A stretch of DNA of 64,000 nt from Escherichia phage Ec_Makalu_003, in the sequence record MN882349.1; one strand, given 5' to 3'. Positions 38,025 through 42,755 of this stretch are shown one piece after another. The position numbers were made by a program, and so were the translations under genes. A model generated the notes under the pieces. It had not been told where the DNA came from and ran no database searches. It was given only the letters and a program-made list of their open reading frames with translations. The number at the start of each line of letters is the position of its first letter. Positions within the stretch are counted from its first letter, which is position 1.

Positions 38025-40268
38025 TTACAGTTTGCAAGATGAACATTCGCTAGCGTCTTCCGTACCATCAGCACCATCACGCACGTTAGCGTAATACAGT
38101 GTCTTGAGGCCGTAATATTGAGCAAACAGCATATCATCTAACACATCAGCAATATCGACTTTACCAGTCTTATAAGTGCTTGGATCATAGGATGTATTGG
38201 AACTGATCGCCTGATCTACAAACTTCTGCATGATCGCTGCCAGTGTCAGATAAGGTTTGTTACCCTTCTTGATCAGTGTCCAAAGCAGGTCAATAACATC
38301 AGCATTATTCTCTACGTTCGGAATAACCTGATTAAATTGCCCTTCTTTCGATCCTTTAACCGATACAATCCCGCGAGGCGGTTCTATTCCATTGGTGCTA
38401 TTAGATACCTGAGAAGACGACTCACAAGGCATCAGCGCCGATAGTGTACTGTTACGAATGCCATATTTTTTCAGGTCTTCGCGCAGTTCTTCCCAATCCA
38501 TTTCATACACCGGGTCAACCAGTTCATCTACTGTCTTTTTGTACCAGTCAATAGGAAGTTCACCGCGACCATAACGTGTTTCGTGCATCAGTTCGCAAGC
38601 GCCCTTCTCTTTTGCTAGCTGCACACTAGCTTTAATCAGAGCATATTGCAAGCGTTCAAACGTTTTATGCGTAAACTCGTTAGCGTCTTCATATGTGAAG
38701 AAATTATCCGCCAGATATGATGCAAAGTTAGTCACACCAACACCCAGAGAGCGACGTTTTTTGGCTGTCAGTGCTTGTTCTACAGGATAATCCTGGTAAT
38801 CTAACAAGTTGTCAAGCGCACGCACCATAACCATAGCGATCCGCTCTACTTCTTCCATATTTTCGATATCGAAATTACCTAAAACATATGCTGCCAAAGT
38901 ACACAGAGCAATTTCGGAGTCATCATGCCCCATTGGTTTAGTAGGCAGTGCAATTTCACAACACAGGTTAGATTGTTTAATCGGTGCTACATTACGAATA
39001 AACGCCCCGTGATTGTTCATGTTGTCTGTGAACGCTGGATAGATTCGACCAGTGTTAAAACGTTCAATTGCCACCGCTAAAAACAGGTCTTCGGCTTTAA
39101 CACGAGTTTTACGAACACTCGGATCTTTTTCCAGTTTTTCATAAAGCTGGCGGAATCCTTCCTCATCTCGGAAGTACAGATCCCACAACAAGCCACCCGC
39201 AACATCTGGACTAAACAGAGTAATGTAATCACGTTTAAGGAATCGCTCTACCATCAGGTTATTAATCTGTACGCCGTAATCAAGATGACGAATGCGGTTA
39301 TCTTCTACCCCTTTGTTGTTCTTCAACACAATAAGACTTTCAAACTCTAAATGCCACATTGGGTAATAGAGAGTCGCCGCCCCGCCACGAATACCGCCTT
39401 GTGAGCATGACTTAACGGCAGTCTGAAAATGCTTCCAGAATGGGATAACGCCAGTATGACGAACTTCACCATGCCCGATCTTAGATCCTTCCGCGCGAAT
39501 CATACCAGCATTGATACCGATACCAGCACGCTTACTAATATACTTGATGATTGCATTTGCTGTTTCGTTGATGCCCTGCAATGAGTCATCACTTTCAATC
39601 ACCACACACGAACTAAATTGTCGTGTTGGAGTACGCACACCAGCCATAATCGGAGTAGGCAGAGAAATTTGCTTATTCGCAACAGCATTATAAAAATCAA
39701 TCACATGTTCGAGTCGATTTTCTGTCTCTTCTTGATGTAAACACATACCGATCAGCATATACGCAAATTGCGGTGTTTCAATGATTTTCTTAGTGCTGCG
39801 ATCCTGAACAAGATATTTCTCTTTTAACTGCATCGCACCAGCATAGGTCATTTTAAAGTCAAGTTTATGGTCGATGAATTTCTCCAGATATTCCACTTCT
39901 TCACGGGAATACTTTTGCAGAATTTCGCGATCATATTTTCCGGTTGCAATATTACGCTCAATATGGCTGTAAAAATCAATAGGTTGGAATTGACCGTATA
40001 CTGATTTACGAAGCGCGAACATTGCAAGGTTACTTGCTACATATTGATAATCAGGCGTTTCTACCGTGATGTTATCTGCGGCGACCTTAATCAATACTTT
40101 CTGGATATCGTTGGTAGACATACCTTCTGTCAGAAGTGGTTCAACCATATCAAACAATTCATATGGATCAACGTTATGACCTTCGGCTGCCGCTTCCAGA
40201 ATTTTCATTACTTTTTCTTTTTCAAACGGAACAGTCAGACCGGAAGACTTAACAACATTTTTAATCAT
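38025..40268 (-). CDS. nrdA: ribonucleotide reductase large subunit
   Basis: 747 aa, ATP-cone N-terminus and class Ia catalytic signatures (NLCCEI, C-terminal CxxC tail). Confidence 0.95.
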   Translation of the reverse strand: MIKNVVKSSGLTVPFEKEKVMKILEAAAEGHNVDPYELFDMVEPLLTEGMSTNDIQKVLIKVAADNITVETPDYQYVASNLAMFALRKSVYGQFQPIDFYSHIERNIATGKYDREILQKYSREEVEYLEKFIDHKLDFKMTYAGAMQLKEKYLVQDRSTKKIIETPQFAYMLIGMCLHQEETENRLEHVIDFYNAVANKQISLPTPIMAGVRTPTRQFSSCVVIESDDSLQGINETANAIIKYISKRAGIGINAGMIRAEGSKIGHGEVRHTGVIPFWKHFQTAVKSCSQGGIRGGAATLYYPMWHLEFESLIVLKNNKGVEDNRIRHLDYGVQINNLMVERFLKRDYITLFSPDVAGGLLWDLYFRDEEGFRQLYEKLEKDPSVRKTRVKAEDLFLAVAIERFNTGRIYPAFTDNMNNHGAFIRNVAPIKQSNLCCEIALPTKPMGHDDSEIALCTLAAYVLGNFDIENMEEVERIAMVMVRALDNLLDYQDYPVEQALTAKKRRSLGVGVTNFASYLADNFFTYEDANEFTHKTFERLQYALIKASVQLAKEKGACELMHETRYGRGELPIDWYKKTVDELVDPVYEMDWEELREDLKKYGIRNSTLSALMPCESSSQVSNSTNGIEPPRGIVSVKGSKEGQFNQVIPNVENNADVIDLLWTLIKKGNKPYLTLAAIMQKFVDQAISSNTSYDPSTYKTGKVDIADVLDDMLFAQYYGLKTLYYANVRDGADGTEDASECSSCKL

Positions 40269-40279
40269 ATTACCTCACT

Positions 40280-40582
40280 TCATATATCAAGCGTATTTTC
40301 TGGAGTATCGCCGAAAACTCTATTAACGAGATCCGCCAATACTTCACCGTGGCATTTCTTAGGGTAGCAAGTACAACCTAAGCGCATATGTCTTAATACT
40401 TCTAAATGCGCCCGTGTTATCTCACCATTTCGAATCTTATTATACAACCACTCTTTGTATAATGCAATAGCTTTCTCTCGTCCGTATTCTTTGGCGGTGT
40501 ATGGATTTCCCCACATAGTACCACGCTGAATATTAACATCAAAATCGCTATTGTATTTGTTTACAACGCGGCATATTTTCAT
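40280..40582 (-). CDS. DUF4326-like small protein
   Basis: 100 aa, MWGNPYT and CTCYPKKCHGEVL motifs. Confidence 0.5.
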   Translation of the reverse strand: MKICRVVNKYNSDFDVNIQRGTMWGNPYTAKEYGREKAIALYKEWLYNKIRNGEITRAHLEVLRHMRLGCTCYPKKCHGEVLADLVNRVFGDTPENTLDI

Positions 40583-40618
40583 TTGATACTCCTTGCGGGG
40601 ATTCCTCCCCGCAATTGT

Positions 40619-41851
40619 TTATACTGCCATTTGAGCGGTGATCGCTGGATGGCTTTGATAGTTGTGAATTTTAAAGTCTTTCGGAGTTTTTGTCAATACC
40701 TCATCTAAAGATTTAAATTCCGGCAACTCAATTGTTGGTTTATCAAACGGAACACGGCTTAACTGTTCCATCACTTGGTCAAAGTGATTTTTGTAAATGT
40801 GAGTATCTCCGCCGGAGAAAATCAGTTCTCCTACTTCGAGATCACACATTTTCGCTATGATGTGAGTTAACAGCGCATAGCTGGCGACGTTAAAGGGCAA
40901 ACCCAAAAAGCTGTCTACGCTTCGCTGAAACCACATACAAGACAGTTTACCCTCATTGACATAGAATTGCACGAACGGATGACATACACCTAATACAGCA
41001 TTATGTGTTCCTTGTACGTTCCATGAGTCAATGATGATACGTCGATCCGTTGGATTGTTTTTAATTTGTTCAATCACGTTTTGTAACTGGTCTTCCCAAA
41101 TCTTCGGGCGATAGACATATTCTTCATCGTCTTTAGTGCTCGATGTGTCTATGTCCATACTAGCAAAGATCGTGGTATCCGGTGCTAAAATGTCACCGCC
41201 TAGATAATCACTATCAAGCAGATAACCGAAATAACCATCATCTACCCATTCCTGGAATCCCCACAAGCAATATGCATCATTAACAAAATTAGATTGAGTC
41301 TTCCAGTGGTCCGCTACTAAGAATTGATTATATTCAGAATCAAACTCTTCATAACGCATACCACGCCAGATAGCACATAAACGCTCTTCTGTGTCATTGT
41401 TTGGCGTAAAGTCTTCTACCCACGGGTGTTTAAATGTATGTGTATATTTGCTCTTAACGCGCTTAATTTTGATTTCACCGTGTGGATGAATCGGTTTGCG
41501 TCGCCACGCCATACCATACATATTGCCGACATTATAACCATTGAATCGCAAGGGATTCTTTTCTTTCATATCAAGACAGTTGCCGCGCCAAATATCAAAT
41601 GCTTCCTCGTCAAACTTTCCGCGTGTAATTTCCTGTAAGCGACGGCGGTCAAGTGATCCCTCCATAAACCATAGCAATTCGCCAATTACAGAGGCTGTAG
41701 CCATCTTTTTAGTGGTCAGTAATGGGAAACCCTTGCTTAAATCAATTCGCATCTCTGTGCCGAATTTAGAGAGCGTACCTACCCCCGTGCGGTCTTCACG
41801 AGGCCAGCCATTATCAAGAACATCACGCAATAGTTTCAAATATTCTTTCAT
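40619..41851 (-). CDS. td: thymidylate synthase with a large in-frame insertion
   Basis: DRTGVGT, catalytic CHPF, SFLGLPFNVASYALLTHIIAKMCDLEVGE, C-terminal PKDFKIHNYQSHPAITAQMAV match T4 Td; about 128 extra residues between YGMAWRR and WEDQLQNV. Confidence 0.85.
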   Translation of the reverse strand: MKEYLKLLRDVLDNGWPREDRTGVGTLSKFGTEMRIDLSKGFPLLTTKKMATASVIGELLWFMEGSLDRRRLQEITRGKFDEEAFDIWRGNCLDMKEKNPLRFNGYNVGNMYGMAWRRKPIHPHGEIKIKRVKSKYTHTFKHPWVEDFTPNNDTEERLCAIWRGMRYEEFDSEYNQFLVADHWKTQSNFVNDAYCLWGFQEWVDDGYFGYLLDSDYLGGDILAPDTTIFASMDIDTSSTKDDEEYVYRPKIWEDQLQNVIEQIKNNPTDRRIIIDSWNVQGTHNAVLGVCHPFVQFYVNEGKLSCMWFQRSVDSFLGLPFNVASYALLTHIIAKMCDLEVGELIFSGGDTHIYKNHFDQVMEQLSRVPFDKPTIELPEFKSLDEVLTKTPKDFKIHNYQSHPAITAQMAV

Positions 41852-42092
41852 CCCACATCACCTTTTTCTTATTGATTGCTTTCTTACGCAGTTTTGCTAC
41901 TGTCTCGTCAATATCGATAAAGACAACGCCACGGTCGAATATAGTAGCAGGTCTTGAGATATCGCTATTTTCTTGCACAGGAAGCCATGATGCGCTCGCT
42001 TCATCATAGAGATATTGTAAACCGTAATAATCTACGGCTACTGCGTAGTTTTCACTGGTAGCCGTCCATAATTGAATAATACCGATTTTCAT
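41823..42092 (-). CDS. hypothetical protein
   Basis: ORF between frd and td; start ambiguous (ATG 42092 or GTG 42119). Confidence 0.45.
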   Translation of the reverse strand: MKIGIIQLWTATSENYAVAVDYYGLQYLYDEASASWLPVQENSDISRPATIFDRGVVFIDIDETVAKLRKKAINKKKVMWDERIFETIA

Positions 42093-42185
42093 TATTGTTC
42101 CCGTCCGCAATGTAAGCACCGACTACCAGCAAACATCAAAGATTCACCACAATGTTTGCACTCATAATCTGTAAGAATTTTCATG

Positions 42186-42755
42186 TTACGCCTTCTTACG
42201 TTCTAAAATTTGTTCGCTGATCAGGTAATTATCAAGGAAGTAATTATGTTCTTCTTTGGTTACAAAGTCAAAATACAATTCCTGAATCATTTCCTTAGAG
42301 ATACCAACATCATATTCAAATGGATCGTTGACCCCTGATCGTTGAACATACGTTAACACAATACGGTCCGCAAAGTCAACCGCTTTTTCAATCAGGGAAG
42401 GTCCGCCGATAACACTTACCAAACCTTGCGTTTTCTCCAGGACTTTTAACAGATCCTTTAATTCAATTCCAGTATACACATTAGGCTGGTCGCCGTTTTT
42501 GGCTTTCGGTGTCGGCTTGCTGGCATCGGTACTAATAACCACATTAAGACGACCTTCCAGTGCTTTAGGGAGACTTTCAAAGGTATTACGTCCCATTACA
42601 ACCGCCGCAAGATCAACATCTCCCATAGTGCGCATTTTAAAGTTTTCCATGTCCTTTTTGATTGGACGACCCCACGGTAAACCGCCTTTAAAACCAAAAG
42701 CCCAATTTTCATCTGACATTTTAGTGTCACCAATCGCAAATACACATTGAATCAT
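42186..42755 (-). CDS. frd: dihydrofolate reductase
   Basis: 189 aa, GLPWG motif and overall DHFR pattern, T4 synteny. Confidence 0.9.
   Translation of the reverse strand: MIQCVFAIGDTKMSDENWAFGFKGGLPWGRPIKKDMENFKMRTMGDVDLAAVVMGRNTFESLPKALEGRLNVVISTDASKPTPKAKNGDQPNVYTGIELKDLLKVLEKTQGLVSVIGGPSLIEKAVDFADRIVLTYVQRSGVNDPFEYDVGISKEMIQELYFDFVTKEEHNYFLDNYLISEQILERKKA

Follow-up and report, generated by a model that had tools for sequence, protein, structure and literature searches.

The thymidylate synthase gene td of phage T4 carries a group I intron, and to our knowledge homing endonucleases are generally thought to depend, within essential genes, on such a splicing vehicle, be it an intron or an intein, or else on a landing site between genes. 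The td gene considered here lies in a stretch of 64,000 nucleotides (the window) of Escherichia phage Ec_Makalu_003 (record MN882349.1), a Krischvirus, that is, an RB49-like, T4-type coliphage, and its product, Td, contains an in-frame insert within the thymidylate synthase (ThyA) fold. Our favored reading, to which we assign a probability of about 75%, is that this insert is the translated fossil of an IPA-HNH-type homing endonuclease that invaded td in frame and that is now dead as a nuclease and no longer binds DNA. On this account a mobile element has entered td in Krischvirus, as one did in T4, though in frame, without splicing, and at a different site. The two cases share the host gene and the phage family; the T4 intron, with its endonuclease I-TevI of the GIY-YIG family, is spliced from the RNA, whereas the window insert is translated and bears no intron signature. 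As far as the reference list of PMC2988022 indicates, td counts among the classical targets of homing elements in conserved coding sequence.

The IPA-HNH family has already been published, as free-standing genes, with gp59 of Vibrio phage ICP1 as a founding member of this class of homing endonucleases (Barth et al. 2023, PMC10448857). According to that paper homing by IPA-HNH genes has not been verified experimentally; thymidylate synthase is unmentioned in it, and T4 is stated to have no IPA-HNH genes. The family is present in multiple copies in phages, beside or inside essential genes, and its module is homologous to that of the Td insert. The described members, however, are free-standing with a C-terminal AP2 domain, whereas the module in ThyA is embedded in frame inside an enzyme; long ThyA inserts have a NUMOD/IENR-like tail instead of AP2, and the window copy is without the DNA-binding parts and the signature residues. 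Among homing insertions that are in frame and do not splice, the closest precedent is the ShiLan domain, which sits in an actinophage DNA methylase and conceals an HNH endonuclease (Arsenault, Gosselin and Gogarten 2025, PMC11855218). This too is a homing-type insertion that leaves the host frame open, is neither intron nor intein, and is predicted to loop out of its host enzyme, much as the Td insert may do. The ShiLan endonuclease is encoded in a different frame from the host gene, whereas the domain inserted in Td shares the frame of its host and belongs to the host protein.

Inteins with homing endonucleases, and the mini-intein remnants derived from them, resemble the Td insert in sitting in frame in conserved enzymes with a sporadic distribution, and in a cycle of invasion, fixation, and degeneration that leaves remnants devoid of an endonuclease. 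The Td insert differs in having neither a Hint splicing domain nor junction nucleophiles, and so it stays in mature Td. Another comparison is offered by mobE, whose insertion splits nrdA of Aeromonas phage Aeh1 into genes-in-pieces (Friedrich et al. 2007, as cited in PMC10448857). There too a homing endonuclease gene sits inside a nucleotide-metabolism gene without any splicing element and host function survives, but the host is broken into 2 polypeptides around a separate endonuclease open reading frame (ORF), while Td is a single polypeptide with an endonuclease-derived domain. A similarly split nrdA lies beside a td with a short insert (P0096) in a metagenomic, T4-like contig (L023:4689-7876), where the pieces of 476 and 324 residues are separated by a canonical HNH endonuclease gene of 237 residues with a NUMOD-like tail and no match to the IPA-HNH profile. 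A literature search of incomplete coverage, the RB49 genome paper not included, returned no account of the insert in RB49 Td or of endonucleases embedded in ThyA.

At the insert position Td is longer than E. coli ThyA or T4 Td by about 125 to 130 residues, and its predicted mass is 47.9 kDa, or 32.1 kDa with the insert removed. The original prediction of an in-frame extra segment of about 128 residues at 41100-41500 was accurate, the exact values being 133 residues and 41099-41497. Outside this segment Td is a ThyA by fold and by sequence family. Pfam Thymidylat_synt (PF00303) matches it with an E-value of 1.1e-84 in 2 separate stretches, the C-terminal one beginning at residue 254, and the NCBIfam thymidylate synthase equivalogs are likewise split in two (TIGR03284, 283 bits against a cutoff of 108). 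The catalytic Cys and the substrate- and cofactor-binding residues are all conserved at the sequence level, and the invariant columns of our ThyA insert alignment (A3) are represented in Td by R21, E58, W116, R117, R270, C290, H291, R310, S311, D313, N321, H351, and Y353. The core is presumably an otherwise normal, active thymidylate synthase. In GC content (0.40) the insert does not differ from the window, and insert and whole gene occur in 58 of the 58 Krischvirus records of the phage collection, with no presence/absence polymorphism.

An AlphaFold2 model of the 410 residues, made with a 34-sequence alignment, shows one continuous confident fold (mean predicted local distance difference test score, pLDDT, 93.3; predicted TM-score 0.91). 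In it the insert is a confident folded unit, with pLDDT blocks of 87 to 98 and a single dip to 72. Ordinary ThyAs were all that Foldseek found with the whole model; superposition of the core on E. coli thymidylate synthase gives a TM-score of 0.93 when normalized by the target, and only 0.60 when normalized by the query because no solved thymidylate synthase has a counterpart of the insert. Among 8 Krischvirus td genes the ratio of nonsynonymous to synonymous substitution rates (dN/dS) is about 0.15 to 0.3 in the insert (binomial p 0.0002 to 0.05 against neutrality) and 0.01 to 0.05 in the ThyA core. The insert is under purifying selection, roughly 10 times weaker than that on the enzyme core, and the sole length change among Krischvirus td genes is a 4-codon indel within it. 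The td frame is open across both junctions in more than 50 divergent homologs with inserts of 100 to 280 residues.

The kinship of the insert becomes evident only through larger inserts and profile-profile comparison; queried alone it gave nothing but noise with Pfam (E 0.28 to 0.38) and a marginal match with PHROGs (0.12). A tblastn search of phage genomes retrieved the Krischvirus genes, the Asteriusvirus jumbo phages UE-S1 and KP13-7, and, more weakly, genes annotated "HNH endonuclease", one of which, in Vibrio phage D181, actually encodes an insert-bearing ThyA; the Asteriusvirus match (E 6e-13, 35% identity) is part of a larger insert at the same position of a 517-residue ThyA. Against PHROGs the UE-S1 insert hits "HNH endonuclease" families with E-values of 4e-32 and 7e-25, and its matches in phage genomes fall at 1,856 places in 1,308 records, for the most part in free-standing genes and often several per genome. 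Free-standing proteins of this family, gathered by profile search and about 190 to 220 residues each, were aligned on their own into a profile (A2). They consist of the module and a C-terminal AP2 domain, some with N-terminal zinc ribbons or an I-HmuI NUMOD-like tail. An independent profile built only from 6 short inserts of the Krischvirus clade (A4) aligned with A2 in hhalign with a probability of 96% and an E-value of 4.8e-9, placing insert residues 37-117 on residues 24-103 of the free-standing protein P0001. The A2 profile in turn matches ICP1 gp59 (GP59) at 1.5e-44 and, among the 601 ORFs of the window, Td alone (E 6e-4). By these 3 comparisons the insert is homologous in sequence to the IPA-HNH family. 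The accessory domain that the original prediction had suggested is indeed a translated inserted domain, but its origin had been missed, as profile homology points to a degenerate remnant of an IPA-HNH-type homing endonuclease. A sequence search of the PDB with the family profile found the AP2 part alone, and an hhalign comparison of the module with I-HmuI was not significant.

Free-standing genes of the family occupy classic homing-endonuclease positions: between DNA polymerase parts in phage alia, between 2 nrdF pieces in Staphylococcus phage PSU6, after nrdB and near the dUTPase gene in Bacillus phage Sophrita, and adjoining DNA polymerase in ICP1. In Escherichia phage alia (L003:1-2468) the family member directly follows "DNA polymerase I, part I" and precedes "nucleotidyltransferase", an arrangement that suggests a polymerase gene interrupted by an endonuclease gene. 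In PSU6 (L016:1012-3125) a gene of the module family labeled "HTH homing endonuclease" stands between 2 fragments of the gene for the ribonucleotide reductase small subunit, and no Rfam intron match was obtained at this locus at E<=0.01. Matches to a "portal" and a "tRNA nucleotidyltransferase" were considered as further in-frame insertions and rejected, both being mis-annotated free-standing genes.

The ThyA inserts in alignment A3 form a natural, nested series from 280 down to 122 residues. Those of about 240 to 280 residues align in 4 parts, a linker, a beta-rich N-terminal region, the module, and a tail resembling the NUMOD/IENR helix-turn-helix. The free-standing gp146 of Bacillus phage Sophrita has the same layout, including the shared beta-rich region and a C-terminus that Pfam assigns as I-HmuI_NUMOD-like. 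In this alignment the window insert keeps only the linkers and the middle portion of the module, and both DNA-binding flanks are gone; neither Pfam on the insert nor A3 revealed an associated DNA-binding domain (AP2, zinc ribbon, or NUMOD-like) in it. The P-x-P-H-G...R-K pattern of the N-terminal linker is common to long and short ThyA inserts. What is left of the module comprises, in order, a helix with a W..M motif (CAIWRGMRY), the turn VADHW, the helix SNFVNDAY, the segment LWGFQEWVD, and the strands YLLDSD and TTIFA, which correspond to the beta-beta part of the beta-beta-alpha unit of the family.

A comparison with the AlphaFold model of P0001 (pLDDT 93.3) shows what has been lost. P0001 has helices at 26-39, 41-46, 57-60, and 62-69, strands at 78-81 and 96-99, and a helix at 100-106; D81-K82-D83, which is invariant, falls where the first strand ends, and the likewise invariant N103 lies in the last helix. 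The counterparts in Td are helices at 153-169, 181-184, and 186-193 and strands at 210-213 and 228-231, and an acidic coil replaces the last helix. Where the family reads D-K-D and Y-S-P-D-T-C, the window insert reads D-S-D and L-A-P-D-T-T, and it does not preserve the polar signature of the family (R37, D81-K82-D83, Y90, C95, and N103 in P0001 numbering). Scored over 57 ThyA inserts as W-R-W, D-K-D, Y-S-x-C/T, and N, the signature is intact in about 30 of the 36 inserts of at least 190 residues and in none of the 15 with at most 142. The window insert has a net charge of -11 and an isoelectric point of 4.7, as against 8.3 to 9.6 in the long inserts and a median of 9.15 in the free-standing proteins. 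A loss of nuclease function and of DNA binding is the straightforward reading of these losses of signature, flanks, and charge, and the insert, being without the signature, would thus be a derived remnant rather than a functional member of IPA-HNH.

The long inserts behave as a mobile element might be expected to. When 1.84 billion cluster representatives were searched exhaustively with HMMER, a large fraction of the top-scoring ThyAs proved to have 400 to 560 residues. Locating the 2 halves of ThyA in such proteins revealed inserts of 100 to 280 residues at the same site, most of the long ones matching the module profile, and many phage ThyAs carry them; in a sample biased toward the query, 57 of 199 evaluated ThyAs had inserts of at least 100 residues. 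In a neighbor-joining tree of the cores, insert-bearing ThyAs are scattered among insert-less ones. The clearest pair, P0286 (552 residues) and P0291 (276 residues), have cores that are 88% identical and differ in the presence of the insert; the phage contigs that carry them are syntenic (DHFR, ThyA ... methyltransferase, terminase). The inserts of P0279 and P0276 are 65% identical and their hosts 51%, while the hosts of P0141 and P0286 are 71% identical and their inserts only 30%; such mismatches indicate transfer between alleles and repeated invasion. A DNA alignment of insert-plus and insert-minus phage contigs showed no obvious co-conversion tract beyond ordinary gene conservation. Overall, the pattern of the long forms fits an in-frame, non-splicing mobile element.

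The clade of the window comprises Krischvirus, P0054/P0096/P0270, and P0271, all T4-like by context and all with short inserts, and its sister in the core tree is a T4-like pair with long inserts of 245 residues. Beyond Krischvirus the short clade consists of distant T4-like contigs with 37% to 56% identity in the insert and 62% to 67% in the core. A second lineage, P0121/P0275 in an Asteriusvirus-like clade, shrank independently to 141-142 residues. In Tenacibaculum phage PTm5, ORF-284 (L020:1108-2691) is a 527-residue ThyA-like protein with the module (profile E 4.8e-12) upstream of the YG-x-QW motif; this different position implies a second, independent in-frame insertion site in ThyA. The labels of such genes vary, the 477-residue insert-bearing ThyA of Vibrio phage D181 (L001:1910-3343) being mislabeled "HNH endonuclease" and td of the Krischvirus phages Whisky, Cognac, and Brandy "hypothetical protein".

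A plausible history would begin with entry of the endonuclease into td between two conserved motifs, YG-x-W-R immediately before it and D-Q-L beyond it; from what is generally known of ThyA, this site would be a permissive surface loop that adjoins conserved coding sequence. The ancestral long form of the gene would have been translated, without splicing, as a single ThyA-endonuclease chimera, the endonuclease moiety of which would cut insert-less thyA alleles, with repair copying the insert in. On the way to Krischvirus, deletions would have removed the beta-rich DNA-binding region at the N-terminal end and the NUMOD/IENR-like helix-turn-helix at the C-terminal end, and in the Krischvirus lineage the beta-beta-alpha helix and the D-K-D/N signature would have been lost and the surface turned acidic, leaving a compact folded excrescence on Td. 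The remnant may persist because there is no splicing or precise-excision route, because it must remain foldable to avoid poisoning an important enzyme, and perhaps because a target site kept disrupted would confer immunity to related endonucleases from co-infecting phages.

We consider it extremely improbable that the segment is removed before the enzyme matures, whether as an unrecognized intron, an atypical intein, or a translational bypass. Phage introns can evade standard detection, with ICP1 examples in PMC10448857. On general grounds such removal is conceivable, as T4 has both the td group I intron and the translational bypass of gene 60. A permissive Rfam scan (E<=1) of 40000-42500, however, gave no match, selection on codons acts in the td frame, the only indel is a multiple of 3, and the frame runs through both junctions in the divergent homologs cited above; the claim of the original prediction that this is not a group I intron is upheld on these grounds. 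The same holds for its claim that there is no intein, since Pfam detected no Hint/intein family in window Td, in the insert alone, or in the long forms, and the junctions WRR|KPI and PKI|WED lack Cys/Ser/Thr and His-Asn. The single continuous fold predicted by AlphaFold also argues against removal, as does the insert having neither an alternative-frame endonuclease ORF of the ShiLan type nor any sizeable alternative-frame ORF. We give just as little credence to an ordinary lineage-specific expansion of a ThyA loop whose likeness to endonucleases arose by chance. ThyA does tolerate variable loops here, inserts of 15 to 57 residues being common at the site in other ThyAs, and the small-domain insert of Lactobacillus casei ThyA, of about 50 residues and not endonuclease-related, is likewise a lineage-specific extra segment in the variable small-domain region; it lies upstream of the YG-x-QWR motif, at about the position where PTm5 ThyA has its IPA-HNH module. 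This explanation is already disfavored by the profile-profile E-value between independently built profiles, by the continuous alignment series from 280-residue inserts with full endonuclease architecture to the 133-residue form, and by secondary-structure elements that follow in the same order. That the insert retains homing endonuclease activity in this phage is highly improbable as well. The core of the module is recognizable and well folded, but none of the family-invariant residues K82, Y90, S91, C95, and N103 is kept, each being either substituted or lost; the beta-beta-alpha unit has no helix, neither DNA-binding flank survives, the net charge is strongly negative, and the insert is fixed in the genus.

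A more serious competitor, though in our judgment still an unlikely one, is an exapted accessory domain, derived from an endonuclease but kept for a new function, for which candidates would be a protein-protein contact within the T4-type dNTP-synthesis complex, a regulatory effect on Td, or protection, as decoy or shield, from factors of the host or of rival phages. The low dN/dS of the insert, its retention throughout Krischvirus and in the distant T4-like contigs, the independent reduction of the P0121/P0275 lineage to a similar core, the invariance of the segment DAYCLWGFQEWVD within the short clade, and the confident predicted fold all speak for such a role. Selection on the core is, however, about 10 times stronger than on the insert, which also tolerates a 4-codon indel, the conserved positions are mostly hydrophobic or aromatic, as maintenance of the fold alone would produce, no partner or motif is known, and selection against misfolding together with target-site immunity would explain the same facts. 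Reading the insert as a fossil endonuclease nevertheless has to accommodate several points that weigh against it. Purifying selection, and survival at about 50% identity in relatives with 67% identical cores, also fit an acquired function; the surface location and packing of the insert are inferred; and the core tree is a neighbor-joining tree without support values. The family has a Lys where the catalytic His would be expected, and the term "endonuclease" rests on the behavior of these elements in genomes, on the DNA-binding domains that accompany them, and on the HHsearch assignment made in PMC10448857.

The window element is a fossil, and its own biology is therefore probably modest; the class that it reveals is probably the more interesting. 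At even odds, in our estimate, the long relatives represent a further lifestyle of homing endonucleases beside the intron-encoded, intein-encoded, free-standing, and gene-splitting ones: a complete endonuclease in a surface loop of an essential enzyme, in frame and never spliced, forming a bifunctional ThyA-endonuclease that drives its own spread into insert-less thyA of co-infecting phages, with the Krischvirus insert as the end state of the life cycle and with the module having entered ThyA at a second site in PTm5. The locus and its relatives suggest that a permissive loop suffices, the endonuclease becoming a domain of the host enzyme and leaving a permanent scar at the protein level when it decays. 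The insert explains the 410-residue Td of RB49-like phages and corrects the "HNH endonuclease" and "hypothetical" labels on some ThyAs. For domain evolution, the series from 280 to 122 residues offers material for studying how inserted domains are trimmed while the host enzyme works. The long forms are candidate enzymes for testing the still uncharacterized IPA-HNH nuclease module, and the site is a natural permissive one for domain insertion in thymidylate synthase.

Table 1. Features of the td locus in the window (residue numbers refer to Td).
Feature	Coordinates	Strand	Remarks
td (thymidylate synthase) coding sequence	40619..41851	-	410 residues and stop; annotated td/thymidylate synthase in RB49 and 57 other Krischvirus records
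N-terminal part of ThyA fold, residues 1-118	41498..41851	-	Last motif the conserved YGMAWRR; R21, E58, W88, Y112, W116, R117 invariant (alignment A3)
In-frame insert, 133 residues (KPIHPHGE...YVYRPKI), residues 119-251	41099..41497	-	Between YGMAWRR and WEDQLQNV
N-terminal linker of insert (KPIHPHGEIKIKR)	41459..41497	-	Predicted beta strands 118-120 and 126-130
Probable IPA-HNH module remnant, residues 155-235	41147..41389	-	From hhalign of A4 with A2 and predicted secondary structure
Four codons SEYN	41327..41338	-	In-frame indel polymorphism inside insert; absent in kvi, Phi1, G2494, E26
Degenerate signature region YLLDSDYLGGDILAPDTTIFA	41162..41224	-	Family consensus LDKD..G...YSPDTC.FV....N; Lys, Tyr-Ser, and Cys replaced
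Acidic coil (SMDIDTSSTKDDEE)	41120..41161	-	Stands in for the invariant-Asn helix and the whole C-terminal DNA-binding region of long inserts
C-terminal linker YVYRPKI	41099..41119	-	Strand 245-249; V-x-R-P-K-I pattern kept in long and short inserts
C-terminal part of ThyA fold, residues 252-410, and stop codon	40619..41098	-	Catalytic Cys290 (VCHPF), R270, R310, S311, D313, N321, H351, Y353
Homolog of RB49ORF236c, 98 residues	41823..42119	-	Overlaps the td start by 29 nucleotides
DUF4326 gene, 100 residues	40280..40582	-	Between td and nrdA

The td region matches 58 phage records at 88% to 99% nucleotide identity, each over at least 80% of the length. On the minus strand frd, a small ORF, td, the DUF4326 gene, and nrdA follow one another in that order. 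The small ORF that overlaps the start of td had no informative family match, the only hit being Pfam Gly_transf_sug at an E-value of 0.056. The presence of the DUF4326 gene varies within Krischvirus, as it is found in the window, SFHK24, and E26 and is absent from RB49, kvi, Phi1, G2494, and ECD7. It is a small mobile or often-lost gene of the td-nrdA junction, and it recurs at the same position in 2 distant T4-like contigs, L017 and L023.

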